Shown piece after piece: positions 65-55,730 of a stretch of 59,260 nucleotides of DNA (the first letter of the stretch is position 1; the number at the start of each line of letters is the position of its first letter). Source of the stretch: a virus (lineage: Duplodnaviria > Caudoviricetes); the IMG/VR virus record IMGVR_UViG_3300027741_000071, positions 1 to 59,260 of that record. The stretch is one strand, 5' to 3'. Below the pieces are notes generated by a model. That model saw only the letters and a list, made by a program, of their open reading frames with translations. It was not told where the DNA came from and did not search any database. A program made the position numbers and the translations under genes.

Positions 65-95
65 AGGCGACCGTCAGAAAGTATGTGCATTAATA
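65..95 (+). promoter_or_regulatory. Putative late promoter AGGCG-N16-TGCATTAATA
   Basis: Same bipartite motif and spacing as sites at 2794, 6471, 10784, 25459, 31666 and 49339(-). Confidence 0.7.
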
Positions 96-100
96 TGGGC

Positions 101-406
101 GTGAGATATCAATACCAAATAAAAGAAGTTTTAAAAACCTCTAGGGGTTTGATTAGCGGGTTTCGCGTGTTGGTTGTGGTCGAAGACCTGGAGCACCACA
201 TGGTAGACGTGCCCGCAGAAATTTTTGAGTATGAAACCTTGGTGTACTTCAGGTGCCGGCTAAAGATGTACCAAAAGGTAGATATCCAAAAGTTACCTTT
301 GTCAGTTCAATATAAGATTAGAATGCCGTTAGCGCATTTCCTAGATTTATGGGTCTTAACAGAAAACAATGGCTATTACAGCAAACGAAAAAATACTGAC
401 GCTTGA
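101..406 (+). CDS. Hypothetical protein
   Basis: ORF 83..406; GTG at 101 preferred because it lies just downstream of the promoter motif. Confidence 0.55.
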   Translation: MRYQYQIKEVLKTSRGLISGFRVLVVVEDLEHHMVDVPAEIFEYETLVYFRCRLKMYQKVDIQKLPLSVQYKIRMPLAHFLDLWVLTENNGYYSKRKNTDA

Positions 407-1358
407 TTATTGGAAACGCGCTGACAAACTGGTTGAAGGCGATTTTATTTTTGATAGGAATGGAGACCTGCGTAAGGTTACGTTAATCCAGCACTTTCAA
501 TCCAAATGCTATGAGGTGCACCTCAGTGACTTGCTGACTGTCAGCGGTAACGCGTCCATGCATTTTTTGTTGGAAACGCCTAAGTACAGGAAACGGCTGG
601 CAGAGTACAAGGGCAAGCGCCAGTTTATGCGCCCGTTGATTTTGGAACCGTTGTCCGGGCTGTTGGATAAGTCGTTGAGGCACAAGAACAACGCGCGTAC
701 GTTCTCAATCCCTACGTGCGGAGCGCTCAAGCTGCCACACCAGGACCTGCCGGTGCCGCCGTTTGTGTTTGGGTACTGGTATTGGAACCGATTGAAGCCC
801 AATGTGTTCTCGGCGCACAAGCTAAACGCCGATGAGGTGTTAGAAAAGTTCCGCAGCCATGGGTATGAGATCATAAAACCAAAAAAACGCAAGGATGGAG
901 CCACGATCTTCAGTGTGTTCCCTACGATTGAGTCACAGCTGGCGCCGTTCATACCCAAAGAGATACCAAACAACTACCTGCTGGGTAGTGAAGAGCAAAG
1001 AATTGAGCTGTTAAGCGGTATTGTAAACGCAAAAATACGACAATACAAGAAAACAAAAGATATTTTTAGAGTTTCTGGCTCACACTGGCCGGAGATTAGG
1101 AAAATCCAGGGGTTAGTAGAGTCATTAGGTAGCAAGACTACACTAAACTTTTACGAAAACTGGAAGCATTACACATTAGGTTTCAGAAACTGTAACCAAC
1201 TGTGTAGTGTTCAGGTGCCGAAGAAAGTTAAGGTGCACCAAGCACGACGGTACATTACTAAAATTGAAGAGTTACCCACGCAACAATGTGTACACATTGA
1301 AACTGACGGGCCTGATGGTTCGTTTTTAGTGGGAGAAGGATTTATCACATGTCGTTAA
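369..1358 (+). CDS. Free-standing intein-like protein (Hint + LAGLIDADG-like), catalytic residues degenerate
   Basis: N-term AITANEKILT..W....L..GD.IFD.NG..RKV..CYEV.LSD resembles intein blocks A/B; DLPVPPFVFG and RIELLSGIVN resemble LAGLIDADG helices; C-term CVHIETDGPDGSFLVGEGFITCR resembles blocks F/G. Confidence 0.8.
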   Translation: MAITANEKILTLDYWKRADKLVEGDFIFDRNGDLRKVTLIQHFQSKCYEVHLSDLLTVSGNASMHFLLETPKYRKRLAEYKGKRQFMRPLILEPLSGLLDKSLRHKNNARTFSIPTCGALKLPHQDLPVPPFVFGYWYWNRLKPNVFSAHKLNADEVLEKFRSHGYEIIKPKKRKDGATIFSVFPTIESQLAPFIPKEIPNNYLLGSEEQRIELLSGIVNAKIRQYKKTKDIFRVSGSHWPEIRKIQGLVESLGSKTTLNFYENWKHYTLGFRNCNQLCSVQVPKKVKVHQARRYITKIEELPTQQCVHIETDGPDGSFLVGEGFITCR

Positions 1359-2794
1359 CGGCAAAACAAGAGCTTCTGTTAAAGAAGTTCGCAGAACAAA
1401 ACAAACAATGGCCAAAGGCGCAGCTCGATGCCACCCTTTGGCTGGTGAAGTACAAGCTATCCGCGCTCCCGCACCAAAAAGAACCGGAGGACGGCGAGTT
1501 TGATACGTTCTTAATGCTGGCCGGCCGCGGTGCGGGTAAGACATGGACGGCGTCTAACTGGATTGGCGAGCGGGCGTGGACTTTTGACAAGACGCGCTGG
1601 TTGGTTACAGCGCCAACAACAAACGACATTCGCGCGACGTGTTTCGAGGGTGACTCTGGGCTACTTAACATTTTGCCACGATCCATCATCAAAGATTACA
1701 ATAAGTCGTTGCTTGAGATTACACTGATCAATGGCTCACTGATCCAAGGGATCCCTGGTTCTGAGCCAGAACGCTATCGTGGTAAGCAATACCATGGGGC
1801 CTGGTTTGACGAGCTGTGTGCGTTTGAGTACATCGACGACGCGTATGACCAGGCGCAGTTTACGTTGCGTTTGATGGACCCACGCATTGGGCGGGTGCAG
1901 CAGATTATCACGACAACGCCGAAGCCGCTCGAGTTGATTGTAGACTTAAACGAGGGTAAGGTGGGCGGCGACGTGTACGTGGCCAACGCCAGCTCGTTTG
2001 ACAACCGCGCCAACTTGTCTGATACGTTTTTCAAACAGTTGGAAAGCTACGAGGGCACCAACCTGGGCCGTCAGGAAATTTACGGCGAGATATTGGATCC
2101 GGAAGAGGCCGGCATTATTAAACGCAAGCAGTTCCGCATGTGGCCAGCCAACAAGTCGACGCCAACCCTTGAGTATGTGATTGCGTCATACGATCCGGCT
2201 ACCAGCGAGAAGACGGTCAACGACCCAACAGCCTGCACGGTGTGGGGCGTGTTTGAGCAAGAGGATGGCCACACGTCGGTCATCATGTTAGACGCATGGG
2301 ACGCGCACTTGGCGTATCCAGAGTTACGCCGCAAAGTTATATCGGACTTCAAGGAAGTTGTGTACGGCGCAGATAACACGTTTGCAAAAGGCCGTAAGGC
2401 TGACTTGTTGCTCATGGAAGACAAGTCTGCAGGTATCAGCCTGATTCAAGAGTTACAAGGCGCCGGCGTTCCGGTGCGTGGATACAACCCAGGACGCGCC
2501 GATAAGGTGCAGCGGTTAAACATCGTGGCCCCGCTGGTTGCTAAGGGCCGGGTGTACATACCGGAGGATCCAGAACAAAAAGGTGAGTTTGCACCGTGGG
2601 CCAAACGATTCATACGGCAGGTGTGTTCGTTCCCTGAAGCCAAAGGGCACGATGACTACGTGGACTCACTGACACAAGCGTTGCGCGTGTTACGTGATTC
2701 AGGATGGTTACAACTCGATCCGTTGCCTGCAAGAGATTACTCATACATTGACGACCAGTTGGCGCGCAAGTTCTCCAATCCATACGCACAGTAG
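1349..2794 (+). CDS. terL: Terminase large subunit
   Basis: Walker A GRGAGKT, Walker B AWFDE, TTTP motif, nuclease motifs SYDPA and HDDYVDS. Confidence 0.95.
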   Translation: MSLTAKQELLLKKFAEQNKQWPKAQLDATLWLVKYKLSALPHQKEPEDGEFDTFLMLAGRGAGKTWTASNWIGERAWTFDKTRWLVTAPTTNDIRATCFEGDSGLLNILPRSIIKDYNKSLLEITLINGSLIQGIPGSEPERYRGKQYHGAWFDELCAFEYIDDAYDQAQFTLRLMDPRIGRVQQIITTTPKPLELIVDLNEGKVGGDVYVANASSFDNRANLSDTFFKQLESYEGTNLGRQEIYGEILDPEEAGIIKRKQFRMWPANKSTPTLEYVIASYDPATSEKTVNDPTACTVWGVFEQEDGHTSVIMLDAWDAHLAYPELRRKVISDFKEVVYGADNTFAKGRKADLLLMEDKSAGISLIQELQGAGVPVRGYNPGRADKVQRLNIVAPLVAKGRVYIPEDPEQKGEFAPWAKRFIRQVCSFPEAKGHDDYVDSLTQALRVLRDSGWLQLDPLPARDYSYIDDQLARKFSNPYAQ

Positions 2795-2824
2795 GGCGAA
2801 ACACCCTACCGATGTGCATTAATA
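2794..2824 (+). promoter_or_regulatory. Putative late promoter GGGCG-N16-TGCATTAATA, overlapping hairpin GTAGGG..CCCTAC (2791-2809)
   Basis: Conserved bipartite motif; ATG 10 nt downstream. Confidence 0.75.
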
Positions 2825-2834
2825 GAATTAGAAT

Positions 2835-6470: not shown

Positions 6471-6501
6471 GGGCGGTTTTATGTCGCCTTTTGTATTAAT
6501 A
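6471..6501 (+). promoter_or_regulatory. Putative late promoter GGGCG-N16-TGTATTAATA
   Basis: One mismatch to core; ATG 5 nt downstream (leaderless-type). Confidence 0.7.
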
Positions 6502-6506
6502 AAAGT

Positions 6507-6698
6507 ATGAAAGATATTGTATCTGAATTAATTAAGCGCTTGAAAAGTGCTGATCAAGATTTAACGTTAGCTATTTCGTCCGGCGTTAATGTCCACGATT
6601 ATGCCTCTTACCAGAGGTTAGTAGGGCAAAAAGCTGGTGTCCAAGAATCATTGGACATTATAAATCAAATCCTTAGCGAGGACGAAGAGGATATTTAA
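6507..6698 (+). CDS. Hypothetical head-module protein
   Basis: 63 aa; DYASYQRLVG motif typical of the small gene preceding phage groES. Confidence 0.7.
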   Translation: MKDIVSELIKRLKSADQDLTLAISSGVNVHDYASYQRLVGQKAGVQESLDIINQILSEDEEDI

Positions 6699-8168: not shown

Positions 8169-8173
8169 ATGAA

Positions 8174-10783: not shown

Positions 10784-10814
10784 GGGCGTTTTAGTCAAAA
10801 ATGTTGCATTAATA
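10784..10814 (+). promoter_or_regulatory. Putative late promoter GGGCG-N16-TGCATTAATA
   Basis: Exact bipartite motif directly after a terminator. Confidence 0.78.
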
Positions 10815-10819
10815 GAAAT

Positions 10820-10905
10820 AGGAAGATTTGCCCCCAACAGGGCCCCTTCGCTTCCGGGGGCTACGATCTAGCGACTGAGTGGGGCTATAAACTCTAGATA
10901 GGAAA
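10820..10905 (+). ncRNA. Candidate structured leader RNA (multi-stem, possible pseudoknots)
   Basis: GCCCC/GGGGC, GGCCCCT/GGGGGCT, loop CTTCC vs upstream GGAAG, ATCTAG vs downstream CTAGAT. Confidence 0.45.
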
Positions 10906-12986: not shown

Positions 12987-15900
12987 ATGGCTGATCAAAG
13001 TATAACCCAACTACCAATTGCTTTTAACCTTACTGGTAATGAGCAAACTGTTGTCGTACAAGGTGGTGTTACAAAACAGGCTTCTGTTTCGCAGATTGCC
13101 AATGCCGCTTCGCCAGGAAAATTAATCACCAATGTAAGTTATAACCCTGAAAACGGAGATTTAACATTTTATTATAGCGATGGTAGTAATGCCACGGTGG
13201 GGCCGGTTTCGGGTTCTTCTGGTGCTACCGGATCGTCTGGATATAGCGGATTTTCAGGTTACAGCGGCAAATCGGGTTATAGCGGCTATAGCGGCTCTGG
13301 CTTAAGTGGATATAGCGGTATCGGTGTAAGTGGTTATAGTGGTTTTAGTGGCTACAGTGGCGCCGGTGTAAGCGGTTATAGTGGATACAGTGGCGCGGGT
13401 GTTAGTGGATACAGCGGTAAATCCGGCTATAGCGGATATAGTGGATCTGGTGTAAGCGGCTATAGTGGCTACAGTGGCGCGGGTGTGAGTGGATACAGCG
13501 GATATAGCGGCGCGGGTGTAAGCGGTTATAGCGGGTATAGCGGATCTGGTGTAAGCGGCTATAGTGGATCTGGTGTGAGCGGTTATAGTGGCTATAGTGG
13601 TGCTGGACTTAGCGGTTACAGCGGATATAGCGGCGCGGGTGTAAGCGGTTATAGCGGGTATAGCGGATCTGGTGTAAGCGGCTATAGTGGATCTGGTGTA
13701 AGCGGCTATAGTGGCTACAGTGGCGTGGGTGTAAGTGGATACAGCGGATATAGCGGCGCGGGTGTAAGCGGTTATAGCGGGTATAGCGGATCTGGTGTAA
13801 GCGGCTATAGTGGATCTGGAGTAAGCGGCTATAGTGGCTACAGTGGCGCGGGTGTAAGTGGATACAGCGGATATAGCGGCGCGGGTGTAAGCGGTTATAG
13901 CGGGTATAGTGGATCTGGTGTAAGCGGCTATAGTGGATCTGGTGTAAGCGGCTATAGCGGATACAGCGGATCCGGTGTAAGCGGCTATAGTGGATATAGC
14001 GGATCTGGTGTAAGCGGCTATAGTGGCTCTGGCGTAAGTGGTTACAGCGGAACTTCCGGCTATTCTGGTTCCTCAATAGCAATTGGCGGAACTAGCACGC
14101 AACTCCAGTATAACAATTCTGGAGCGTTGGGCGGTGTGGCAAACATTACTTATAATGGCTCAACTACAACGCAAACAAGCGGGACAATTGACGGAACAAC
14201 TATTGGCGGCACAACCCCTGCGGCTGGTACGTTTACTACGTTAATTGGCGGCGGCGGTTCAGCTAACTACATCCAAGCGACAGGCGGGGCTACAACTAAA
14301 GCAGTTCAGTTTCAAACGCTTGGTAGCGATGCGGCTGTATCCCTAGCCATACAACCCAAAGGCACAGGTGCAATAGACCTAGCGGCTGGTTCTAGCGGTG
14401 TGAACATTTCTAACGGTGGTACGGTTACTGCGCTGACAAGAACTGCTGGTGGTGCAGGATATACATCCTATCCAAGTGTTGCTATTTCAGCTCCCACTAC
14501 AGCTGGTGGTGTACAAGCTACTGCGACTTGCACGGTGATGTTTAACGCCGCGGCGACTATTGCAAGTGGTGGCACAGGATACACGGTTGGCGATGTGCTA
14601 ACAATGGTTGGTGGAACCCCAACGTCAACTGGCGGTACATTTACCGTTACAACTGTATCTTCTGGCGCTGTAACAGGGGTAACAGCAAATTCAAAAGCAT
14701 ACACGGCATTGCCATCTAACCCAGTTTCAACAACTGTTAGTCCCGCAGGCGGAACTGGTTGCACGTTAAACGTCACATATTCTATTGACCCCGGTGGTCT
14801 AACAATTGGAACAGCAGGTTCTGGATATGTTGAACAGCCAACGGTAACAATTAGTGGTGGCGGCGGTAGCGGCGGCACTGGCTATGCTACTGTGGGTAGT
14901 GTTCCAAAGATTACAAGTCTTGGTGGTGATTTATCGTTTTATACACCAGGCGGTGAGGCATTTCGTGTAGCGGATATTGGTGGTACAACAGTTAACTATG
15001 TAAGCGTTAGGGGAGATACCTCCACTGGAAATACGCCAAAAATTATAGCGGCTGGAGCAAGTGGAACTTTAAATTTAGCTATTTCTAGTAAATCTTCTGG
15101 CGCTATAATTTTTTATACCAATAGTTCTACAAACACTCAGATGCAGGTTACTCACACAGCATCATCAGTTAACTACGTACAGGTGACGGGTGCGGCTACT
15201 AATAGCGGCCCAGAAATATCATCCCAAGGTAGTGATACTTCTGTTTCCATTAACTACACTGCAAAAAATGCAGGAAACCACATCTTTAAACAGGCTGGCG
15301 GTACTAATTTTAGGGTTAACTACAGCGTAACGGCACCAATAAATTATTTAGCAGTAACTGGCTCATTGACTGGTAGCAGTCCTAGTTTATATAGTCAAGG
15401 CTCAGACACAGACATTGACCTAACCCTAACACCCAAAGGCGCAGGAACTGTTAAAACTTCAGGAACAGGTATTAGGCTTGTAGGCGCTTCTTCTGGTTAT
15501 GTAGGCTTAAAAGGCGCTGCTGCTGCGGGTTCTACTACATATCAATTACCTGCTGCTGATGGCACAAGCGGGCAGGTTTTATCTACTAACGGTTCTGCAG
15601 TACTATCTTGGGCTACTGCCAGTGGTGGTGGAGGGGGAACGCCGGGAGGTTCAAGTGGGCAGCTTCAATATAATAACAGCAGCTCATTTGGCGGTGTAAC
15701 AAACGTTACGGTTACTACAGGGCAGACGACTGCAAGAATAGACCCTAGAGTTTCCGTTGAATCAAACTCAGCAACCAGTGTCACGCCGGACATTAGTTTG
15801 TATGATATGTATGTGTGGACTGGGTTGTCTACCGCTGGAACTTTAACAATCAATATTCCGTCAGGAACCCCACTAAACGGCGATAAATTAATGTTTAGAA

Positions 15901-16088
15901 TACAAGATGACGGCACGTCTGGTGCGGTTACTTTGTCTTGGGTTCAAAGCGGTACAGGGTGTTTTAGAACAATTAACGTCCCGCTCCCGACTACAACCGG
16001 CGGCGCTGCAAAAGTAGTTTATGTTGGGTGTATATATAACTCGTTTAGCGCAACTTGGGATGTGATTGCATCCGGAACGCAGTTTTAA
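12987..16088 (+). CDS. Tail fibre protein with Gly-Tyr-Ser collagen-like tract
   Basis: MAD.SITQLP N-term, about 280 aa of (GYS/GVS)n, repeated beta modules, WDVIA C-term. Confidence 0.82.
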   Translation: MADQSITQLPIAFNLTGNEQTVVVQGGVTKQASVSQIANAASPGKLITNVSYNPENGDLTFYYSDGSNATVGPVSGSSGATGSSGYSGFSGYSGKSGYSGYSGSGLSGYSGIGVSGYSGFSGYSGAGVSGYSGYSGAGVSGYSGKSGYSGYSGSGVSGYSGYSGAGVSGYSGYSGAGVSGYSGYSGSGVSGYSGSGVSGYSGYSGAGLSGYSGYSGAGVSGYSGYSGSGVSGYSGSGVSGYSGYSGVGVSGYSGYSGAGVSGYSGYSGSGVSGYSGSGVSGYSGYSGAGVSGYSGYSGAGVSGYSGYSGSGVSGYSGSGVSGYSGYSGSGVSGYSGYSGSGVSGYSGSGVSGYSGTSGYSGSSIAIGGTSTQLQYNNSGALGGVANITYNGSTTTQTSGTIDGTTIGGTTPAAGTFTTLIGGGGSANYIQATGGATTKAVQFQTLGSDAAVSLAIQPKGTGAIDLAAGSSGVNISNGGTVTALTRTAGGAGYTSYPSVAISAPTTAGGVQATATCTVMFNAAATIASGGTGYTVGDVLTMVGGTPTSTGGTFTVTTVSSGAVTGVTANSKAYTALPSNPVSTTVSPAGGTGCTLNVTYSIDPGGLTIGTAGSGYVEQPTVTISGGGGSGGTGYATVGSVPKITSLGGDLSFYTPGGEAFRVADIGGTTVNYVSVRGDTSTGNTPKIIAAGASGTLNLAISSKSSGAIIFYTNSSTNTQMQVTHTASSVNYVQVTGAATNSGPEISSQGSDTSVSINYTAKNAGNHIFKQAGGTNFRVNYSVTAPINYLAVTGSLTGSSPSLYSQGSDTDIDLTLTPKGAGTVKTSGTGIRLVGASSGYVGLKGAAAAGSTTYQLPAADGTSGQVLSTNGSAVLSWATASGGGGGTPGGSSGQLQYNNSSSFGGVTNVTVTTGQTTARIDPRVSVESNSATSVTPDISLYDMYVWTGLSTAGTLTINIPSGTPLNGDKLMFRIQDDGTSGAVTLSWVQSGTGCFRTINVPLPTTTGGAAKVVYVGCIYNSFSATWDVIASGTQF
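13213..14070 (+). repeat. Low-complexity coding repeat (SGY/SGV)n
   Basis: Tandem near-identical units such as ggtgtaagcggctatagtgg; boundaries approximate. Confidence 0.9.
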
Positions 16089-17934: not shown

Positions 17935-17946
17935 CATTAATATGTA

Positions 17947-17955
17947 TGGTATAAT
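17947..17955 (+). promoter_or_regulatory. Extended -10 (TGnTATAAT) sigma70-type promoter upstream of the glycosyltransferase cluster
   Basis: TGGTATAAT 28 nt upstream of a TTG start that has an AGGAG RBS. Confidence 0.5.
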
Positions 17956-17982
17956 GAGAGCTCTTAACTTTAGGAGAGCACC

Positions 17983-25226: not shown

Positions 25227-25466
25227 ATGGATTTACAAACATTAATAAACACTGTGCTACCATTAATCTGTGTGGCGATTGGCTGGTTTTGCAAAGAGCT
25301 TTGGACCGCGGTTATGAATTTAAAAGAAGATTTGGCACAGCTTCGCGCGCACATATCTGACAACTATTTGCGCAAAGACGATTTTTCCTCACGCTGGGAA
25401 GAGGTCCTAAAAGCTGTTCATCGGATTGAAGACAAGCTAGATCAATTGCGAGATTCAAGGGCCTAA
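25227..25466 (+). CDS. Small membrane/coiled-coil lysis-region protein
   Basis: N-terminal TM then coiled coil ending IEDKLD. Confidence 0.7.
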   Translation: MDLQTLINTVLPLICVAIGWFCKELWTAVMNLKEDLAQLRAHISDNYLRKDDFSSRWEEVLKAVHRIEDKLDQLRDSRA

Positions 25467-25489
25467 ATGGCCTTTTTTATGCATTAATA
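25459..25489 (+). promoter_or_regulatory. Putative late promoter GGGCC-N16-TGCATTAATA
   Basis: Conserved bipartite motif. Confidence 0.75.
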
Positions 25490-25537
25490 AATATAGGGAT
25501 TGATCACCCTTTTTAACATTTACCTTAAGGAAATACC

Positions 25538-31426: not shown

Positions 31427-31680
31427 CGAATAAGATTGTCCAGTCGTTCCCGTTTAGCACCGCCTATTGCGGTTTTGAGGAATGGGTTGGCAACTTCATC
31501 CAATGGTACGGCCAAGAACCAATTGGGCAGGGCCACGAGCTGGAATGGAAAGAGATTGCCAACCAGATTGTGAGCGCGCCGTCTTTTGCAGCCTATGGCC
31601 TGCAATCACCTGAAATGTTTGAGACTTGGCAAGAGTGGGCCGAAGACGTTTCCTTAGCAATTAACGGGCCAACTCACTGA
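31423..31680 (+). CDS. Hypothetical protein
   Basis: ATGA overlap; FETWQEWA motif. Confidence 0.7.
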   Translation: MTNKIVQSFPFSTAYCGFEEWVGNFIQWYGQEPIGQGHELEWKEIANQIVSAPSFAAYGLQSPEMFETWQEWAEDVSLAINGPTH

Positions 31681-31696
31681 TTTTTTTGCATTAATA
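31666..31696 (+). promoter_or_regulatory. Putative late promoter GGGCC-N16-TGCATTAATA
   Basis: Conserved bipartite motif upstream of the ejection-protein operon. Confidence 0.75.
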
Positions 31697-31708
31697 TACG
31701 TAGAATAT

Positions 31709-41000: not shown

Positions 41001-41741
41001 CGACTGGATATCCCAGCTTACACACAAAACGGCGTGTACGTAGACACCGTGCACAACGCAAAGGGCGCTCCAATCAGCTACAACCGCACTGGTCACCTGA
41101 AGGATGTTGAATTTAGCTCTAAACCCAACCAGGCGGTTCGTGTAGGCCTTGGAACCAAGGAGCAGGCCCTTACCCCTATGGGCGCTGAAATGGGCTCTGG
41201 AAAGTCCCCTTTTGCGCTTATGAAGGGTACTAACATCGGCACCCACGATGACGAAGTGCGCCGCATGATGCAAGAGTATCTGAACGATCCTAACTGGACA
41301 CAGATCGGCATGGACCCACGCCGTAACTCTCAGTTCTATGACAAGTCTACCGGCTTACCAGTTTTCTCCGCAACCGAGAAGCTACAGTCTGGTCCGTTAG
41401 TTATGGTGCCAAAAGGTGGCCTCGAGTCATCGCACTGGGAAGACCCGCGTTTGTTGCTGTCTGACTTTGAGGGCAAGCACTATGCCGGTGGTGGACACGC
41501 TACACCAGCATGGCAACGCTCAGAGGGTAAGAACCCAGAAGGTGGATTGAACGCTGCTGGACGTGCGTCATACAACCGTGAACACGGCGCTCACTTAAAA
41601 GCACCGCAGCCCGAGGGTGGATCACGTAGAGATTCTTTCTGTGCCCGGATGGAAGGCATGAAGAAAAAGAATACGTCGTCTGAAACGGCCAACGATCCAG
41701 ACTCACGCATCAACAAGTCGCTACGTAAGTGGAAGTGTTAA
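38070..41741 (+). CDS. Polyvalent multidomain protein with ADP-ribosyltransferase-like (ART-PolyVal-like) module
   Basis: MYHGT..F...IFVT.NP.FA..F...IMPV.V...NPFDY...GHDS...EQIKSAIGN.G.F; C-terminal TPAWQRSEGKNPEGGLN...RINKSLRKWKC; modules separated by GG linkers. Confidence 0.75.
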   Translation: MGDEHIDIDAALKDHPADVVAAELAKLHGVDRDAYLKDGVTDDQFLNEMRGQALPKTEAPAPTQESTLSEPNNATNVVYGTIAAAAPAAAGYAANKLKGVALSVAGSKGVPSMDTTTPSKTFASPSQVSARVTQAGQPPRPSGPTDVVNWASGKDERTGQYGRGYLGGTSLEHEAALHKQADALEAKSPGYKIKPGTSNFLIPEAEYNKLVSEAKTAETSAKEALSNKAKMAAELRANRLAQINSTNVPAKIANNISSAPVAKRFMTGYNVGDLLQAQNPFEATVSAAGAAAPYGAGMVEKFIPQKYKGLAKLLGPVVSTAAPAINYLERKLISPSQQQDESNINHAAGGSIQGYAGGKAVKGALDFLFKPRPTQIVRASEALAPHEGKYLGLTQTDNFGVHGDRMGGNQFPNFQNIKPLHQQHGVVWMNDAEKHAQDMVKRSNDNTVWSTYIGAPDQLKSNKTVFNDILQQHYKRDLTPEQIDLINKRIETLRPAPGKPLVFPQKFDIQDKFAAQELGGDTFARRAALADMLGMGKGVGSTKSGIAMPDYENILRSHRDPITEGVPTSSVGSRLFTVDPTRNAQFTQDFHPDYNYAVFGKDQGVQFNPVPQNLAVPDWYNEINARAPGKTHGNAWFSYMNNPQRITEEYLTNLQKAGHAEGGEVQGYAGGKAVTGALEYIGKKILPAAEREANKAKYLENSVVKTPMYHGTSSDITEFKPRTANTIFVTSNPRFAQTFGDAHQQRLVKNVKDRMPDKEFLDIMRGGGYDNLDTVVNLGLPARQNIMPVHVNATNPFDYENPQHVESLFNELSKADGAPSTHSLSHGAWNLLELPHVQAGIKNLGHDSYFVQEGGQKNLGLYKPEQIKSAIGNEGSFNPLDPDITKKEGGEVEGYAGGKAVGKVISQVPEVAQALEAYLRGHISNAERMDILNKHLPIRKWNELPPNYTNEQIRAALMANKQPKALAEVPVGMQVGNRLDIPAYTQNGVYVDTVHNAKGAPISYNRTGHLKDVEFSSKPNQAVRVGLGTKEQALTPMGAEMGSGKSPFALMKGTNIGTHDDEVRRMMQEYLNDPNWTQIGMDPRRNSQFYDKSTGLPVFSATEKLQSGPLVMVPKGGLESSHWEDPRLLLSDFEGKHYAGGGHATPAWQRSEGKNPEGGLNAAGRASYNREHGAHLKAPQPEGGSRRDSFCARMEGMKKKNTSSETANDPDSRINKSLRKWKC

Positions 41742-42014
41742 TTAACCGTACTTTTTAATAAACGCTTTAAGTTTACGAACTTCACCACGGGCCCATTTCC
41801 TGCCGTGTGGGTCATCGGTGTGGTCAAACTCACCGGCAAGTGCATCACCATTAATGTGGCCTGACTCATAAAAGGTCGACAACACATACTCGGCTTCTTT
41901 GACAATTTCCAAGTCGGTGTAATCTTCGATTTGTTTCTTGTCGTCGGTTGAAATGTTTTCGAGGTCGTAAGCCAACTCGTCAATAGCCAACGCGGATTTA
42001 ATAATCTGTTTCAT
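41742..42014 (-). CDS. Hypothetical protein
   Basis: ATG at 42014; stop abuts the + strand stop (TTAATTAA). Confidence 0.65.
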   Translation of the reverse strand: MKQIIKSALAIDELAYDLENISTDDKKQIEDYTDLEIVKEAEYVLSTFYESGHINGDALAGEFDHTDDPHGRKWARGEVRKLKAFIKKYG

Positions 42015-42116
42015 TTTTAGCCTTTTTAGTTTGTGTGCCATTATCGACACAAATACATTATACAATAAAAAACACTGTATAACACTGTATACAGTGTAAA
42101 GAATTGTAAAGTTGGG

Positions 42117-46590: not shown

Positions 46591-46660
46591 TTTAGACTTT
46601 TTCCATTTTAGATTGCACCGGGTTTGAAGGTACCGGCACGTTGACCTTTTCTTGCCATGA

Positions 46661-46672
46661 TATTAATGCAAA
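46661..46672 (-). promoter_or_regulatory. Putative middle promoter TTTGCATTAATA (core only)
   Basis: Upstream of SSB; no GGGC element at the conserved spacing. Confidence 0.7.
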
Positions 46673-46688
46673 CATCTGGCAAAAACTT

Positions 46689-48487: not shown

Positions 48488-48518
48488 TTTTACCTTTTTA
48501 GAAGTTTATCGGTAAATA

Positions 48519-48530
48519 TATTAATGCAAA
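48519..48530 (-). promoter_or_regulatory. Putative middle promoter TTTGCATTAATA (core only)
   Basis: Directly after a terminator, upstream of the nuclease gene. Confidence 0.7.
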
Positions 48531-48531
48531 C

Positions 48532-49300: not shown

Positions 49301-49308
49301 TCTATCTA

Positions 49309-49339
49309 TATTAATGCAAACTATTTTGTAGCGTCGCCC
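49309..49339 (-). promoter_or_regulatory. Putative late promoter GGGCG-N16-TGCATTAATA on - strand
   Basis: The only - strand site with the GGGCG element; upstream of the TerS-like cassette. Confidence 0.75.
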
Positions 49340-49518
49340 TTGGCGGCAGGCTGGCTTTTCATTGCCTCTACATGCCGCAGGGTGGCCTTGATCTCAGGCA
49401 TAACCTGGTTAAGGTACGTGCGAGTCAACGCCTCTGCCATGGCAGCGCGCTTAGGGTTTAGCGGGTTGCCTTTGTCCATACCCGCGTTGACCATCATGTT
49501 CTTAAGCAGCTGGCTCAT
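49321..49518 (-). CDS. Hypothetical protein
   Basis: ATG 49518; part of an overlapping gene chain. Confidence 0.6.
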   Translation of the reverse strand: MSQLLKNMMVNAGMDKGNPLNPKRAAMAEALTRTYLNQVMPEIKATLRHVEAMKSQPAAKGDATK

Positions 49519-49714
49519 CTTTATTTTCCAGTTCTTCATTTAACTTTTGCACCTGCGGACCGACTTGCATATGTATGTCATTGATGTAATTTGCCCAAGC
49601 CATAACCGGCGTATTTGTTGGCCTGTTCATTGCGTTAATTAATTCATTAATTTGGCGCAACGTATACTGCAAAGTAACAATTGCATCATCCATAACTTTC
49701 GCTTCTTCACTCAT
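49502..49714 (-). CDS. Hypothetical protein
   Basis: AGGAG RBS; coiled-coil-like. Confidence 0.65.
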   Translation of the reverse strand: MSEEAKVMDDAIVTLQYTLRQINELINAMNRPTNTPVMAWANYINDIHMQVGPQVQKLNEELENKDEPAA

Positions 49715-49964
49715 TTTCTACACTCCTTTGGTTAATAAATTGCTTGGTCTCTATCATTCTTTCAAACCCATCCCACAACCTGCGGGCTTGGATATCTAAC
49801 ACTTCTTTTATGCCGTTGAGTTTGTTAAACAACTCGTCCTCATCAAACGGCACTGGACCATCAATATGCTGGCGCATAAACTCTTCAATCAAGTCTGAGA
49901 CGTTTGATATTTTCAAGATATCTTGCTCCAGATCAAACCGGTCATACTGGTGAAAATACTTCAT
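49707..49964 (-). CDS. Hypothetical protein
   Basis: DRFDLEQ.I motif; ATGA overlap. Confidence 0.7.
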   Translation of the reverse strand: MKYFHQYDRFDLEQDILKISNVSDLIEEFMRQHIDGPVPFDEDELFNKLNGIKEVLDIQARRLWDGFERMIETKQFINQRSVENE

Positions 49965-50191
49965 TTAATCTTCTCCCGTTTCTTAACAGCCGCCTCAAAG
50001 TCACTGAAGTACCACTCACCCAGGATTTCAATGGCGTACGCCACACGTTTCCAAAGCATTACGTCCTCTTCAGCGCGATCAATTTGTTTTAGCTCCACCT
50101 TCTCCAGGTCGCGCATTAATCCAACGTAAGTGTCTACCAAACTTTGACAAACAATCTCGTCTAAAAAGTCATCATCTACTTCTAAATGCAT
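49961..50191 (-). CDS. Hypothetical protein
   Basis: GGAGG RBS; overlapping gene chain. Confidence 0.65.
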   Translation of the reverse strand: MHLEVDDDFLDEIVCQSLVDTYVGLMRDLEKVELKQIDRAEEDVMLWKRVAYAIEILGEWYFSDFEAAVKKREKIK

Positions 50192-50393
50192 CGCTATTCC
50201 TCCGGTCTATTTCTCGTGATATGTACCATCTAGCCTTCTTAAGGTCTTCAACGGCGTCGTTTTTTAGGTCTGCGCGCCAAATGTATTTGATCGCATTACC
50301 AAGGTTAAAACCCATGTGCTCCGTTATCTGAATACACTCCACACCGCTTGGATGTTCTGTGTAATGCTTCGGTTGATTAACTGGATCGTTCAT
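50172..50393 (-). CDS. DUF3310/SaV-like protein
   Basis: DPVNQPKHY...GVECI...GNAIKYIWR...K..EDLKKARWY. Confidence 0.85.
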   Translation of the reverse strand: MNDPVNQPKHYTEHPSGVECIQITEHMGFNLGNAIKYIWRADLKNDAVEDLKKARWYISREIDRRNSDAFRSR

Positions 50394-50551
50394 GCTACCC
50401 CCCATCTCATCACTTCATGAACAACCATCTCAGCCTCTTCTTCATTATCACAAAAGAAAATGCATTTAATGTCTTGGTAGAGTTCAGTGTTTAGCTCGTC
50501 GCCGTACTCAACCGTGACCCCATCATCACCATGCGCAACAACAAAAATCAT
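50390..50551 (-). CDS. Small acidic protein (53 aa, not in ORF track)
   Basis: MIFVVAHGDDG...; ATGA overlaps at both ends. Confidence 0.65.
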   Translation of the reverse strand: MIFVVAHGDDGVTVEYGDELNTELYQDIKCIFFCDNEEEAEMVVHEVMRWGVA

Positions 50552-50859
50552 ACGCGTAATTCCTTCTTAATAAACTCCACGCCCTTGGCAAAATGCCAGC
50601 GCCAATACTTCTCTGATACATCTATGTCTTTGTGCGTCTTGCCCTCCAAGAACGCCTCCAACACAATACGCTGCTTCTCTGGCATGCGGTTCTCAATCAG
50701 CCTATGGATGTCGTTTAGATCCTCTGGATCCCACGGCACCCAACCATCGGCAATGATTTCTGGGTGTGCATCCGGCTCGTCCTGCTCAATGGGATCAATC
50801 TCTTCGTCCGACAACTTGGTGCGGGCCGCGTTGACTTTGTATTTTGTTGTTGTTTTCAT
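50548..50859 (-). CDS. Stand-alone sigma-70 region 4-like HTH protein
   Basis: LIENRMPEKQRIVLEAFLEGKTHKDI.VSE......KG...IKKEL resembles the sigma4 L..LP..QR.V......G.S..EI pattern; acidic linker upstream; no region 2. Confidence 0.6.
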   Translation of the reverse strand: MKTTTKYKVNAARTKLSDEEIDPIEQDEPDAHPEIIADGWVPWDPEDLNDIHRLIENRMPEKQRIVLEAFLEGKTHKDIDVSEKYWRWHFAKGVEFIKKELRV

Positions 50860-50867
50860 CGTGCTTA

Positions 50868-50879
50868 TATTAATGCAAA
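50868..50879 (-). promoter_or_regulatory. Putative middle promoter TTTGCATTAATA (core only)
   Basis: 8 nt upstream of the ATG of the sigma4-like gene. Confidence 0.7.
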
Positions 50880-52201
50880 TTTAATGCGTTTAGGAGGGCT
50901 TCTTGGAGATTTATTTTACCTTCTAGTACATTTACCGCCTGAATATCAATACTTTTTTCTACAGTTAGGTGATGGATGATCACCGGTTTGGTTTGTCCCT
51001 GGCGGTAGATTCGCGCGTTTGCCTGCACGTAATTCTCCGAACTCCATGGTAGGTCGTACCAAACAGTCTGCGCCAGGGCGCCAGCGTTGCACTGCAGGTT
51101 CAAACCAATGCCACCAGACTGCGGGTGCGCCAGCATGATCGGCACCTTACCGTCGCGCCATGCCTGCATGTTGTCATCGTTGAGCACCTCAGCGTACGGA
51201 AACGCTGCAAGTATTCTCTCCAAGGAATGTTTGAAGTGGTAGAAAATCAGCGTGGGTGTCGTGGATTCCTCCAGCAGCGACTCCAAAAACTCAATCTTAG
51301 CGTTGTTGGTTCGCACCCAGCTGCCGTCCTCTGTATAGATTGCGCCAGATGTAAACTGCAGCAATTTGCCAGACAACACGGCTGCGGTGGGCGCTGTGAT
51401 CTCAAACTCTTTTATACCCAGCACCAGATCCTTTTTAAGGGTCTCATACTGCGCCGTTTCATCCTTGCTAAGGGCTATCCTATGGTAGAGCCTTGTGCAC
51501 TCTGGAAGCTGCAAATAATCATTCGCGCGGAGGCTGAAGCATATGTCGGAAATTTTTTGCTGGATCGCTTCCACTGCCCCCGGTTTCGGTTTCCAACTGT
51601 ACACCACTCGTGTGTGTCGGTTCATTTGATCCGGCTGCATGTATAGGTCCCTGAACTTCGTTAATGAGCTCTCTAACCTTTGCCCTAAGTCTAGGATTCC
51701 CACTTGCGCCCATAAATCCCCAACCCCCTGCGGAGATGGGGTTCCAGTCAGAATCAAGCGTCTTTTGAATGATTTCAAATGTTTCTTTAATGCTTTGAAC
51801 CTTTTGGTTGATGGATCTTTGAAACGGCTGCTCTCGTCCACTACCAAGTTGTCGAACGTAATCGGCTCGTCCAACAACCATACCAAGTTTTCTAAGTTCA
51901 CAACATAGATTGATGAGTTCTGTTTGAGCGCGAGTTGCCGCTGCGTCGGCGTCCCTAAAACTTTGCTCAATGAGAGCTTCGAGAGGTGCTGCCAATTTGT
52001 TATCTCCTTGTCCCATACGTTCTCCGCTACTCGTTTAGGCGCCACTATAAGCGTAGTGCCCGTAAATTGCTCCGCTATTATCGTCAACGCTGTCACTGTC
52101 TTGCCCAGGCCCGGCTCCATGAACAGCCCCAGTGATGGCTGCCCCTTCGCCTTCTCGATCATGTCCAGCTGGTACTGGTGTAGTTGATGTCTTTCTAGCA
52201 C
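50870..52201 (-). CDS. SNF2-family DNA helicase
   Basis: PGLGKT, VVDESS, LTGTP, GIGLNLQ, QANARIYRQGQ. Confidence 0.92.
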   Translation of the reverse strand: MLERHQLHQYQLDMIEKAKGQPSLGLFMEPGLGKTVTALTIIAEQFTGTTLIVAPKRVAENVWDKEITNWQHLSKLSLSKVLGTPTQRQLALKQNSSIYVVNLENLVWLLDEPITFDNLVVDESSRFKDPSTKRFKALKKHLKSFKRRLILTGTPSPQGVGDLWAQVGILDLGQRLESSLTKFRDLYMQPDQMNRHTRVVYSWKPKPGAVEAIQQKISDICFSLRANDYLQLPECTRLYHRIALSKDETAQYETLKKDLVLGIKEFEITAPTAAVLSGKLLQFTSGAIYTEDGSWVRTNNAKIEFLESLLEESTTPTLIFYHFKHSLERILAAFPYAEVLNDDNMQAWRDGKVPIMLAHPQSGGIGLNLQCNAGALAQTVWYDLPWSSENYVQANARIYRQGQTKPVIIHHLTVEKSIDIQAVNVLEGKINLQEALLNALNLH

Positions 52202-53188: not shown

Positions 53189-53387
53189 CTTTTTTGAGCT
53201 TGTTGATTTGTTCATTCATGCGCTTCATCTCTTTTTCCATGTCAAGGATTAGTTCTGATAACTCCTTGATCATGTCTTGGCACTCACCAAAGCCAATGAT
53301 AAACATCTGCTCGTTGGTGTGCACCTGCATGTTAACCTTGTGCCTGCTGTTCCATGCTTGGTACGCGATGCGTGCTTGTTCTGACAT
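53172..53387 (-). CDS. Hypothetical coiled-coil protein
   Basis: TAATG coupling to the primase gene. Confidence 0.6.
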   Translation of the reverse strand: MSEQARIAYQAWNSRHKVNMQVHTNEQMFIIGFGECQDMIKELSELILDMEKEMKRMNEQINKLKKDAKKV

Positions 53388-55711
53388 TAGAAAATCTCCT
53401 GTTCAAAGTTACTGATTGACTCGATATATTTTTTAGCCTTGGCATTCAACTTAACACCGCGGTAGATGTGGATGCGCTCACCGTTCTCACGGATCACGTC
53501 CACCGTGATTCTGTGCTCCTGCGTCGACGCTAAGAACCGGCGCTTGAACGCCAGGTCTGTGCCCACCGGAATGTTTTTCTTGATAGCCCAGTGCTTGTAA
53601 CAACGGAATACATCATCCTTTGTAACGTACGTCGTTGCATCAAACTCCAACGCCTCGTCAGCAAACGATCCAAGCACGTTACCAATCTCTTGCATAAGCT
53701 CGAGATAAACCTCGCCACTCTTTGGCTGCAGGAAGTAACCACCGCGCTCAATGCGTCGTGTCAACCCTTCGATCGCCCAGTTAAAAATGCCACCCAGCTC
53801 GCTCTCGAGTTTGTGCGACAAGTCGGTGTCCTCTTTGCCGTAGAAGCTGTTAGACATCTTGAGCACAACCATACGGCCGGTCAACGCGTTAGAGTTTTCT
53901 GTCAACTGCAACGCCTCGTTAGAGTAGATCACGATGCGTGTTGGCAGGTATCCGTTCCACGCCTCTTTGTTCTTGCGGTTAACAGTAATCGTATCACCAC
54001 CAACAATCCGCAAAAGTTGGCCAACAACAGCAGAACGATTACGATCTGGGGCTCGAGCATCAGTAAAAGAAGCCAGTAGCTTGCCAAGCCAAGGCTGTAG
54101 ACCAAATGAGTCACCAAGTTCTCCCAATTCTGGCGCTACCGTGTTGTGTTGTCCAAGCAACGACACCAGCACCTTGTTAATAGTTCCCTTGCCTGAACGG
54201 CGGGGTCCAATGATGTTGAAGAACTTCTGCTGGCGCGTGTCACCGCTCAGGATATACCCAAACATCTCCTGCAGCGAGTCAATCGACTCCTGGTCATCCG
54301 GCCAAACCTGGTTCAAAAATGTTAACCATACTGAACATTTTGCGTCCGGGTTGTACTCGAACGGCAGTGAGTTTTGTGTGAAAAAACCCAGCGAATGTGG
54401 CAGGATCAAATAATCCTTGAGGTGAAACAATCCGTTCTTCACGCTGATCAACTGCGACGCCTCTGGCTTGTTAGGCGCGTACGCCTCCAACCAGATCGGT
54501 GGCTTGGTGTTAGGCTGATTCTCCAAGTGCACCACACCCTTGATCGCATCCAAAGCGGCCGACACGCTGGCCGGTGTGGGTGTGAACGGAATTATCGCGC
54601 CCTTTTTACCCGGCTTCTTGCAGTTATCCAAGAACATGTATAACTTGGAGCGGATCGTCGCCTCCTCAATGATCTGATAATGCGTCCCTACGTACACGTA
54701 AAACTCATCCGCATAGTGTACCAACCGGTACCCTTCCTCGCACGAATACACGTTGTCTAAGAACGTTTTAGCGTGGTTAATAGGGTTGCCTACGTCGAGC
54801 ACAATCTCACCGCGCGCCATGGCCTCCTTGCGCGCCTCCTGGTTGATCTTAAATATCAGCGAGCGCAGTGTGGCACCCTGGCCACGGAACGTGCGCCACT
54901 TGCCCTCACAGCTCATCGGACCGTTGGCCACGTACGCACCAACCTGTCCGTCCCCATAGCTCCACCGCTCCCACACGTCCAGTGCCTCCAGGTCACCGCT
55001 GAACTGGTGGTGTAACGCAAACCCAACCTGCAGCCAGTCCCCATACCCACAGTTCGGGTCTAGGCGCGTCAATATATCTGTCTCAACCTTGTGCAGGTCA
55101 TAGCCTTCCAACGGTGGCACGTAGTCCGCAAACGCGTCCCCTGTGCGGTGTATTGTGCGCTCAGGCACAAAGCTCGAGATATCCTGCTCATCCTCTGGAA
55201 TCTCGCCAACAATGTGGTTGCCGGTCACCGTGAAGTAACGCCCGCGGTTATACACCTCCAAACCCAGCGCGTGGTCAACGTGTGCCGACTGTAGGTTCGC
55301 GCGTGTGAAAATCTTTACGCCAGTCCCAGACGGGGACACCTCTGCGTAACCCTGAATTTGGTTGGCAATCGTCTCGAGCGCAGTGTTGGTGTACTTAGAG
55401 TGAAACGGGTCGTAGCAGTCGTCCAGGTCCACGCCGGCCAGGTTGTCCGAGTCGTCAAACACAAACCCAATGCCGTCAAAGCGCTGGGGTTGCTGTTCAT
55501 AGGCCTGCTGGACCGCCAGAAAGTCCGTCCACGTTGACGGATCGTTTGACTTAGCCGACTGCCCGTTGGGTTGTGAAGGCAGTTTGCTCCAACGTTTGTT
55601 GTCCGCTTCACCAACCTCCACAAATTTCCACATCACCCACCGCGGGATCCGCTTCAACTCCATCGGTATGTTTTCAAACAGCACCGGTAGTGCTTTTGGT
55701 TTATTCATCAT
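53387..55711 (-). CDS. Primase-polymerase (AEP) + PriCT-2 + D5-like SF3 helicase
   Basis: GIGFV, GVDLDDC, EVSPSGTG, RYFTVTG, YGDWL.VG.ALH, GPRRSGKGT. Confidence 0.9.
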   Translation of the reverse strand: MMNKPKALPVLFENIPMELKRIPRWVMWKFVEVGEADNKRWSKLPSQPNGQSAKSNDPSTWTDFLAVQQAYEQQPQRFDGIGFVFDDSDNLAGVDLDDCYDPFHSKYTNTALETIANQIQGYAEVSPSGTGVKIFTRANLQSAHVDHALGLEVYNRGRYFTVTGNHIVGEIPEDEQDISSFVPERTIHRTGDAFADYVPPLEGYDLHKVETDILTRLDPNCGYGDWLQVGFALHHQFSGDLEALDVWERWSYGDGQVGAYVANGPMSCEGKWRTFRGQGATLRSLIFKINQEARKEAMARGEIVLDVGNPINHAKTFLDNVYSCEEGYRLVHYADEFYVYVGTHYQIIEEATIRSKLYMFLDNCKKPGKKGAIIPFTPTPASVSAALDAIKGVVHLENQPNTKPPIWLEAYAPNKPEASQLISVKNGLFHLKDYLILPHSLGFFTQNSLPFEYNPDAKCSVWLTFLNQVWPDDQESIDSLQEMFGYILSGDTRQQKFFNIIGPRRSGKGTINKVLVSLLGQHNTVAPELGELGDSFGLQPWLGKLLASFTDARAPDRNRSAVVGQLLRIVGGDTITVNRKNKEAWNGYLPTRIVIYSNEALQLTENSNALTGRMVVLKMSNSFYGKEDTDLSHKLESELGGIFNWAIEGLTRRIERGGYFLQPKSGEVYLELMQEIGNVLGSFADEALEFDATTYVTKDDVFRCYKHWAIKKNIPVGTDLAFKRRFLASTQEHRITVDVIRENGERIHIYRGVKLNAKAKKYIESISNFEQEIF

Positions 55712-55718
55712 AGTCCTA

Positions 55719-55730
55719 TATTAATGCAAA
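55719..55730 (-). promoter_or_regulatory. Putative middle promoter TTTGCATTAATA (core only)
   Basis: 7 nt upstream of the primase ATG. Confidence 0.7.

Follow-up and report, generated by a model that had tools for sequence, protein, structure and literature searches.

We analysed the 59,260-bp record IMGVR_UViG_3300027741_000071, a linear contig of an uncultured freshwater phage that is 91% complete and is taken here in full as the window, for a promoter-like motif that occurs in two forms and for the proteins that may read it. The genome is organised in two arms. The plus-strand arm (83–41741) carries the packaging and virion genes. The rest is a minus-strand arm, with genes for PolA, a class II ribonucleotide reductase (RNR), a gp2.5/Enc34-type single-stranded DNA (ssDNA)-binding protein, a DUF2800 nuclease, an SNF2 helicase and a primase, and small open reading frames (ORFs) with no assigned function past the primase. 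No GenBank phage matched the two window stretches searched by megablast, and none is close; the best matches of the large terminase TerL are in MW202545 (51%) and in the Caulobacter phages RW and GB2A (42–43%). The nearest relative is another contig, L117 (also numbered G006), which is 92–97% identical to the window.

Two forms of one promoter-like motif

The core TGCATTAATA is present exactly ten times, five times on each strand (86, 2815, 10805, 25480 and 31687 on the plus strand; 46670, 48528, 49318, 50877 and 55728 on the minus strand), and a variant core, TGTATTAATA, is found at 6492 (+). The original prediction had placed the core just upstream of genes at these eleven places, using low coordinates for the minus-strand sites (46661, 48519, 49309, 50868, 55719), and all of them were recovered. 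In 300 dinucleotide-preserving shuffles, the exact core was found 0.19 times on average and twice at most. All eleven sites are co-oriented with the genes downstream, and all lie in the non-coding 4.5% of the window or overlap a stop codon. The frequency of the motif inside genes, which had been raised as a possible objection, amounts to three matches with one mismatch (17033−, 19530+ and 35132+), none of which has the flanking features.

A second element, RGGCS, starts exactly 21 nt upstream of the core at all six plus-strand sites and at 49318, in the forms AGGCG (once), GGGCG (four times) and GGGCC (twice). With a genome-wide background of 0.0027 per position, its presence at seven of eleven sites has a probability of about 3e-16, which confirms the spacing originally claimed. 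It is not present at this offset at 46670, 48528, 50877 and 55728, so that its reported absence before the genes for the ssDNA-binding protein, the nuclease, a sigma4-like protein of 103 aa and the primase was also confirmed. The two forms are called hereafter composite and core-only (Table 1). A search with a loose composite pattern returned the seven sites and one antisense intragenic match, at 30942, without the TGC core. At all five minus-strand sites (the four core-only sites together with composite 49318), the core is preceded by TT and followed by T, and TAG occupies core+5 to core+7 at five of seven composite sites versus none of the four core-only sites of the window.

Table 1. Candidate promoters and associated features of the window.
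Feature	Position	Strand	Details
Composite promoter, terminase unit	65..101	+	AGGCG 65–69, core 86–95, predicted start 101
Composite promoter, 182-aa and portal genes	2794..2830	+	GGGCG 2794–2798, core 2815–2824, predicted start A2830, ATG 2835
Composite promoter, scaffold/capsid unit	6471..6507	+	GGGCG 6471–6475, TGTATTAATA 6492–6501
Composite promoter, 93-nt leader	10784..10820	+	GGGCG 10784–10788, core 10805–10814, predicted start A10820 (AGG)
Composite promoter, virion unit from 25538	25459..25495	+	GGGCC 25459–25463, core 25480–25489, predicted start A25495 (AGG)
Composite promoter, ejection/tail unit to 41741	31666..31702	+	GGGCC 31666–31670, core 31687–31696, predicted start A31702, ATG 31709
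Core-only promoter, gp2.5/Enc34-type ssDNA-binding protein, RNR, PolA	46655..46673	−	TTTGCATTAATAT, predicted start 46655
Core-only promoter, DUF2800/PD-(D/E)XK nuclease gene	48513..48531	−	directly past terminator hairpin, predicted start A48513
Small-terminase-like protein, 129 aa, N-terminal helix-turn-helix	48587..48976	−	downstream of 49318 promoter
Composite promoter in replication arm, leader and small-terminase-like gene	49303..49339	−	GGGCG 49339–49335, core 49318–49309, predicted start A49303
103-aa protein, candidate sigma C-piece, region 3.2–4	50548..50859	−	three-helix C-terminal domain, residues 45–103
Core-only promoter, 103-aa gene	50862..50880	−	predicted start A50862, 3 nt before ATG
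Core-only promoter, primase-to-helicase unit	55713..55731	−	primase ATG 55711, 7 nt past core
Cut ORF, 3' end ..WANQVIKRYQ*	59227..59260	−	last 34 nt of window; whole (88 aa) in L117

The proposed division into a virion and a replication class is supported, since it follows gene function at 11 of 11 sites of the window, and it holds also in the relatives G001 and G003. All seven composite sites head packaging or virion units, and all four core-only sites head DNA-metabolism units. The exception by location is 49318, which is counted with the packaging genes because it heads a small-terminase-like gene. The product of this gene matched phrog_309 (E 2.3e-9), and members of its family matched, below threshold, GP3_package (5 of 16 members, best E 0.0069) and Sf6_terminase (2 of 16). 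Both the position of the 49318 promoter and its arrangement with a leader and the small-terminase-like gene are conserved in relatives.

Orthologs were found for the plus-strand sites. The first has a counterpart in L117 with GGGCA at the same offset, and its predicted start in the window is the G of an in-frame GTG of ORF 83–406. The site at 2794..2830 has orthologs in L081 and L092, that at 10784..10820, preceded on its 5' side by a terminator hairpin, in L083 and L095, that at 25459..25495 in L086 and L089, and that at 31666..31702 in L087 and L090. At 6471..6507, the predicted start A6507 is the A of the ATG, so that the message would be leaderless; the L082 and L093 orthologs have the ATG at the same offset, with a conserved protein N-terminus. 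On the minus strand, the core at 50877 contains the stop codon of the helicase gene.

A survey of related genomes, suggested with the original prediction, revealed both classes in dozens of related IMG/VR phage contigs. Eighty IMG/VR loci were retrieved via the helicase (65–99% protein identity). They contain TG[CT]ATTA[N]TA 198 times, 195 of which are on the helicase strand, and GGCS peaks at one offset, with 48 occurrences versus at most 18 at any other. In whole-record searches, to which 20 fetched sites were added, the box was found in the virion arm at 6/7 sites in G001 and 5/5 in G003, and in the replication arm at one conserved site (1/7 in L017, 1/3 in L050). Because many of the relatives' sites are orthologous, these counts are not independent; at such sites the flanks have diverged and the box and core are unchanged. 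Among 196 unique sites, the consensus was ttAGGGCGGA..TTTTGCATTAGTAgATATAGG for the composite class (n=58) and TTTTGCATTAGTATA for the core-only class (n=138). The core is conserved equally in both. Three places distinguish the classes: the box, the base that follows the core, and the start region, with G at core+7 in 83% of composite versus 17% of core-only sites. One clade has a core beginning with GCGT and retains the 18 nt between GGGCGG and ATTA; in another, ATAAGTA replaces ATTAGTA. The eighth base of the core is not the same in all genomes. Of the 41 loci with at least three sites, 34 have one and the same variable core base at every site, yet this base differs from one genome to another, a pattern expected if the promoters evolve together with a reader encoded by the genome.

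The distance from the core to the first ATG suggests where transcription would start. The first ATG is exactly at core+6 at 5 composite and 20 core-only unique sites, and in the composite class the T and A at core+5 and core+6 are 97% and 98% conserved. Because the 5' end of a leaderless message must coincide with the start codon, +1 was placed at core+6, in agreement with the start about 6 nt after the core that had been predicted. Relative to this +1, TG would be at −15/−14, ATTAnT at −12 to −7 and GGGCGG at −36 to −31, with a spacer of 18 bp. Except for the T at −11, sigma70-family promoters of the extended −10 type would be arranged in this way. Judged by sequence geometry only, the composite sites have −10 and −35 elements at the canonical spacing of cognate sigma promoters. 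The earlier idea of a shared, non-canonical −10-type core with an optional element at the −35 position is supported.

Canonical sigma70-type sites are not enriched in the window (22 found versus 21.2 expected); host-type TGnTATAAT promoters are also present, and the early regions of the window and of L117 contain no core sites. Other interpretations of the two elements were tried and rejected. GGGCG is not half of a terminator: GGG..CCC hairpins form at some sites, but the box is unpartnered at most of them, and neither its sequence nor its offset varies. A sigma54 reading of TTGCAT lacks the GG element 10–11 nt upstream. The idea that composite sites are weak cores compensated by the box is not compatible with a core equally conserved in both classes. 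Finally, a search of the window for hairpins at the 5' end of the late transcripts yielded z values between −2.0 and +0.9, with no consistent trend.

Two further elements adjoin the promoters of relatives. An operator-like palindrome, TTTCACAttGTGAAA, lies about 20–35 nt upstream of some core-only promoters (L007:4540–4575, L017:2820–2850 and similar) and was not found in the window. In L003–L072, the first 45 nt after the composite promoter of the small-terminase-like gene begin with a conserved hairpin with a GNRA loop cap and compensatory changes in 6 of 7 predicted pairs; the window's own leader (49303–49110) differs and includes AT-rich ATGTAC repeats.

Candidate pieces of a sigma factor

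The phage had been described as having no recognisable RNA polymerase or full sigma factor. The first half of this statement stood in PHROGs scans; the second did not, since a sigma with regions 2 and 3 is encoded in L117 just past the end of the window. The absence of a sigma factor is an artefact, because the contig is cut. L117 1–2744 aligns with window 56640–59260, and L117 9644–12392 with window 1–2760; the 6.9 kb of L117 between these stretches, bordered on both sides by repeats of about 125 nt, are missing from the window. Directly upstream of the ORF that is cut at the window end (Table 1), about 230 nt past that end, L117 carries the gene for a 210-aa sigma protein with regions 1.2–3, referred to below as the N-piece.

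This protein scored 42.2 bits with Sigma70_r2 (cut-off 24) and 35.2 bits with Sigma70_r3. It aligns with Mycobacterium tuberculosis SigA (E 6e-27, residues 25–203 to SigA 260–433) and ends with SLD at the border of regions 3.1 and 3.2, without region 4. The two tryptophans of SigA region 2.3/2.4 and the following RQA are replaced, and these replacements could go with the unusual hexamer. A Sigma70_r2 protein is encoded by all four long or complete relatives first searched, and scores for the whole set were 33.3 (G005), 29.8 (G007), 27.7 (G003), 27.1 (G001), 26.6 (G008), 24.3 (G009) and, below the cut-off, 22.1 bits (G002). In G001, G002, G003, G005 and G006, Sigma70_r2 and Sigma70_r3 matches fall within one open frame of 192–219 aa that stops after region 3, with Sigma70_r3 over its cut-off in all five of these relatives. 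G007–G009, searched with Sigma70_r2 only, have their matches in open frames of 197–211 aa. Thirty loci extend beyond 2 kb upstream of the primase, and tblastn located the N-piece in 29 of them. Its gene is in the early region. An early specificity factor encoded within the window was considered and rejected: the window's early proteins are not conserved, with 0–1 matches across the 80 loci, no family match suggests a sigma, and a scan with a 105-aa early protein found nothing.

The 103-aa protein, the sigma4-like protein of the original prediction, is a candidate for the other piece, the C-piece, and is best read as a detached region 3.2–4. Its gene is always behind core-only promoters and never in the early region. 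The N-terminal part is acidic and disordered, with an invariant LSDE..DP.E motif that is retained even in 35–40% identical homologues; this part is located where region 3.2 would be and, by eye, resembles it. AlphaFold2 (AF2) predicted the C-terminal 59 residues (45–103) confidently as a three-helix domain with the fold of sigma region 4. Among the Foldseek matches listed, almost all were sigma region 4, mostly of extracytoplasmic function (ECF) sigma factors, at an E value of only about 0.8. VIA Z scores of 8.9–8.0 were obtained to region 4 of sigmaE, SigD and SigR, with Z 8.7 and a root-mean-square deviation of 2.9 over 61 residues for 2h27_D. By sequence, Sigma70_r4_2 gave the window protein 16.7 bits versus a cut-off of 25.7; among 35 members of the family, 8 matched, none reaching the cut-off (best E 2.9e-4). 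A search of 35 members against NCBIfam, with E up to 0.1, returned only weak sigma70-family models, and neither RinA nor ArpU was among them. T.KYWRYH, the presumed recognition helix, shows almost no variation, and the same is true of GGGCG.

Residues 40–103 were also modelled with the beta flap of Escherichia coli RNA polymerase as a stand-in for the host. The score was 0.52, versus 0.01 for the best control, and was graded as weak support. Of 80 solved complexes, 58 attain this mark, as do 2 of 110 mismatched pairs; with a score of at most 0.60, it is reached by only 7 of the 80 solved complexes and by both passing mismatches. The runs share at least 72% of contacts, with a predicted local distance difference test (pLDDT) value of at least 80 for the partner. 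This predicted docking may come from likeness to solved sigma4–flap complexes.

The 103-aa protein has 165 close homologues, all of about 100 aa, and is present in 78 of the 80 loci. The complete genome G009 has an N-piece, a C-piece (E 8e-41) and five composite sites, versus none in a reversed-pattern control; the complete genome MW202545 shares the virion module (TerL 51%) and has no N-piece, C-piece or composite sites. Farther away, in P0140-like loci (10–20% fragments), the core adjoins a C-piece-like gene; a P0143 scan for distant C-piece homologues found nothing.

Four small conserved genes follow the 103-aa gene in one transcription unit (49502–50405, −). They encode a DUF3310 protein (76/80 loci, 80% identity) and then proteins of 76, 85 and 70 aa, of which the 85-aa one is present in 73/80 loci and the 76-aa one in 44/80; the 76- and 85-aa proteins have Lys-rich tails in relatives. 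The 85-aa protein (49707–49964) was considered and rejected: a good AF2 model (pLDDT 84) showed a plain helical hairpin, with no Foldseek match at E ≤0.001.

Neighbouring genes and other signals

A 24-nt word, GTCTTCTATGTCTTCTRGTACAAA, occurs three times (0 expected), at 29–52 (+), 59089–59112 (−) and 59186–59209 (+), the copies forming inverted pairs around a long A/T tract. The element of about 125 nt, represented in the window at 59089–59210 and 1–52, occurs twice in L117 (2563–2691 and 9577–9696), bordering the 6.9 kb absent from the window; it is probably the site where the assembly broke, and could be an early control or terminator element. Within these 6.9 kb, L117 8900–9400 (−) contains words of sigma54-promoter form, TGGCAT-N5-TTGC(T/A), in a tandem array of at least five, adjoined by three exact DnaA-box words TTATCCACA at the head of the L117 early arm. 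They could be early promoters, an origin, or both.

Two window genes have extended −10 elements. A glycosyltransferase gene (17983–19212, +) lies in the lowest-GC stretch of the genome (0.40) and is preceded by a perfect host-type extended −10 element, TGGTATAAT (17935–17982, +). It looks like a moron with its own promoter; its G001 counterpart is instead preceded by a promoter of the phage type. A small gene (41742–42116, −) closing the minus-strand arm carries an extended −10 element for itself, TGTATAAT, along with two copies of the repeat TATACAGTG, and a 93-aa homologue is encoded in the L117 early region. Two tentative leads bear on the host: matches of only 27–41 residues between the glycosyltransferase moron and Verrucomicrobia metagenome-assembled genomes, and the actinobacterial SigA proteins that are the best PDB matches of the N-piece.

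Among the virion proteins, the 1223-aa product of 38070–41741 (+) has an ART-PolyVal domain (ADP-ribosyltransferase of polyvalent proteins, E 1.1e-11), with DUF6321 at its C terminus; were this protein injected, host proteins could be its targets, possibly including the polymerase. The 1033-aa fibre-like protein (12987–16088, +) has about 270 residues of near-perfect SGYSG(A/S)GV repeats and then a Gly/Thr/Ser-rich part, with no PHROG or Pfam match. Two adjacent genes, 369–1358 and 1349–2794 (+), both match large-terminase families, the 329-aa product of the first through its N-terminal part (phrog_15) and the 481-aa product of the second with phrog_38 and phrog_2; the pair may be a split large terminase, or one may be an extra ATPase. 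No tRNA gene was found in the window, and Rfam returned no family for the whole of it.

A proposed two-piece sigma factor and its alternatives

From the demonstrated motifs, their geometry and conservation, the gene classes, the N-piece of relatives and the sigma4-like fold of the 103-aa protein, we infer which piece reads which element, where transcripts start and in what order. The reading we prefer, with a probability of roughly 0.6, is that the eleven sites are promoters for the host RNA polymerase carrying a phage sigma70-family factor made as two polypeptides. Early transcripts, including that of the N-piece (about 200 aa, regions 1.2–3.1), would come from the host polymerase, and the N-piece gene of this virus would lie in the early region, within the approximately 6.9 kb missing from the window. 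The N-piece would read the core as an extended −10-type element that needs no −35 box, and would turn on the four core-only promoters, those of the primase-to-helicase genes, the 103-aa gene unit, the nuclease, and the ssDNA-binding protein, RNR and PolA. Made from one of these promoters, the C-piece would join the holoenzyme at the beta flap and read GGGCGG at −36 to −31, 18 bp from the −10 hexamer. It would turn on the seven composite promoters, and with them the terminase, portal, capsid, tail, ejection and small-terminase-like genes. That this amounts to temporal control, the N-piece holoenzyme firing middle promoters and the C-piece, as a middle product, adding the −35 reading and with it the late promoters, is advanced more tentatively, as a possible but somewhat doubtful extension.

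Several observations weigh against this reading. The Sigma70_r2 search of the window itself gave no candidate (best tblastn E 0.86), and the presence of the N-piece in this virus is deduced from L117. For the C-piece, a Z below 13 can, for small helical domains, reflect a common arrangement, and a PDB-chain profile search with the 103-aa family gave no match. A hidden Markov model (HMM) search of 1.84 billion representatives returned 33 matches, nearly all short stand-alone proteins and none a full-length sigma; a fused N- and C-piece sigma was not found, the one longer match carrying an unrelated domain, which is weak evidence. The −10 hexamer has a T where sigma70 requires an A at −11, and because of this T the register of the core is set by the ATG pile-up only. 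On start sites and timing, metatranscriptome run X24 contained only five short window contigs at 100% identity (49552–49917, 50200–50586, 57447–57608), which have no transcript ends and may come from DNA carry-over. In Bacillus subtilis SigO–RsoA and Tn916 Sig7–Sig8, both pieces are needed at all their promoters (preprint 10.64898/2026.10.01.756105), which argues against a one-piece middle form. A caution also comes from Salmonella phage 7-11, for which a middle/late split made in silico (PMC4331800) was contradicted by later experiment (PMC8948821); the timing suggested here should therefore be taken as a proposal.

The main competing explanation is that both pieces always act together, GGGCGG and the AGG start only strengthening the virion promoters without any temporal switch. 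We consider this unlikely. It has the precedent of the two-subunit sigmas just cited. Virion genes need the highest expression, and with an equally conserved core, composite sites carry more information rather than a weaker core. In some relatives, moreover, the C-piece gene overlaps the helicase stop codon and lacks a separate promoter, so that read-through could supply both pieces early. Against this stand the location of the C-piece gene behind core-only promoters and of the N-piece gene in an early region without core sites, and the agreement of the two forms with gene function, complete in the window and repeated in G001 and G003. Extended −10-type promoters, besides, work without a −35 reading.

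GGGCGG might instead be bound by a separate activator, the 103-aa protein only occupying the flap, as T4 gp33 does, or having another role. This appears improbable: GGGCGG is at the canonical −35 position with an 18-bp spacer, retained in the GCGT-core clade, the presumed recognition helix is nearly invariant, like the box, and no RinA or ArpU model matched the 35 members. The family does lack a significant sequence match to region 4, and its helix-turn-helix begins with a shortened helix. Two more conserved small proteins, both with basic tails, are encoded in the transcription unit, one of 85 aa (73/80 loci) and one of 76 aa (44/80); the 85-aa protein is a plain helical hairpin with no informative match. 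RinA-type late activators (PMC3152322) offer a precedent for such an arrangement.

We think it very improbable that a host sigma, primary or alternative, reads the core and that phage proteins only modulate it. The TG at the extended −10 position, the host-type TGnTATAAT promoters and the poor conservation of the window's early proteins (0–1 matches in 80 loci) would fit; the conserved phage sigma with regions 2 and 3, early regions devoid of the core, the core base that is uniform within and different between genomes, the T at −11 and the number of canonical sigma70-type sites, close to expectation, would not. Hardly any weight is given to a phage RNA polymerase that has escaped recognition and, like those of T7-like phages, uses an uninterrupted promoter, here some 21 nt long (TTTTGCATTAnTAnATATA|GG): the composite class is indeed conserved unbroken from about −18 to +3, ending in TATAGG, but none of the ORFs of at least 300 aa, all scanned in PHROGs, is a polymerase, the 1033-aa protein is a fibre and the 640-aa protein resembles an ejection protein (an Atlas lead only), the 6.9-kb L117 stretch has no ORF above 215 aa, an ATG at core+6 misfits a start one base later, and a box at −36 is unexpected for such enzymes.

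Split sigma factors and phage-sigma promoters are already known, and the two-piece sigma proposed here can be set beside them. As in SigO–RsoA and Sig7–Sig8, the parts reading −10 and −35 would be separate proteins on one RNA polymerase, and a gene of the factor is behind a promoter that the factor would read, a positive feedback. Those systems are group-4-like (regions 2 and 4 only) and have one promoter type, whereas the N-piece is primary-sigma-like (regions 1.2–3, best PDB match SigA). In the phage, the two genes are kilobases apart and in different transcription classes, and there are two promoter classes, with and without the −35 box.

A phage two-part sigma for late genes on the host core polymerase also recalls T4 gp55/gp33/gp45 and SPO1 gp33/gp34. 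The T4 late box spans about −13 to −6, as does the core here; the late promoters of T4 are not known to have a −35 element, nor gp33 to read DNA. Unlike in T4, a box at the −35 position marks the virion class here, so that the T4 type, a single 8-bp late box without a −35 element, was not observed. No gp55, gp33 or clamp family was found among 60 window proteins scanned in PHROGs or 30 in Pfam, both scans covering the window only. The analogy with gp55, drawn earlier from a match to the T4 box at 6 of 8 positions, was not borne out: these scans turned up nothing like gp55, the base at core position eight changes from genome to genome, and the match is no evidence of kinship.

The systems of phiEco32 gp36 and phage 7-11 gp47 (PMC4331800) show several likenesses: a genome divided into a virion arm on the plus strand and a functional arm on the minus strand, early promoters of the host type followed by phage-sigma middle and late promoters, and promoters that abut start codons. 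Both sigmas are single polypeptides, unlike the two pieces here, where the relatives' frames end after region 3 and no single polypeptide with regions 2 and 4 was seen. The phiEco32 promoters have a single element, tAATGTAtA, and the late promoters of 7-11 are bipartite (GTAAtg-16-aCTA), with no middle class (PMC8948821). The RinA/ArpU/Ltr late activators of Gram-positive temperate phages (PMC3152322) are likewise small phage proteins that switch on packaging and morphogenesis genes, with a C-terminal half weakly like region 4; they act with the host sigma at one late promoter upstream of terS, whereas the present system has a phage sigma N-piece and as many as seven composite promoters.

The core-only sites, finally, resemble extended −10 promoters. 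In the extended −10 (TGn) promoters of sigma70-family holoenzymes, the TG is two bases upstream of the −10 hexamer. The core-only sites have their TG in the same place and no −35 element; they differ in the hexamer, ATTAnT with a T at −11, and the N-piece differs from SigA at the WW..RQA positions of region 2.3/2.4.

In the literature searches made, a primary-like sigma cut after region 3, with promoter classes matching one or two pieces, was not found; those on split sigmas in phages and metagenomes listed no paper on this phage group, and those with the literal motif strings no phage-promoter paper among the titles inspected. What sets the group, which is widespread in fresh water, apart from the known split sigmas is the placing of the two candidate halves in different expression classes, together with two matching promoter forms. 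The case also illustrates that a cut contig can create a false puzzle of a missing sigma factor. For annotation, the two forms provide a rule by which transcription units, and genes that start without a leader, can be located in many genomes of uncultured phages. If the proposed reading is true, the switch from middle to late transcription would be the arrival of the second half of a sigma factor, an economical timer, and the phages would offer a compact, orthogonal promoter system with two inputs, a model approachable with two small proteins and short templates.

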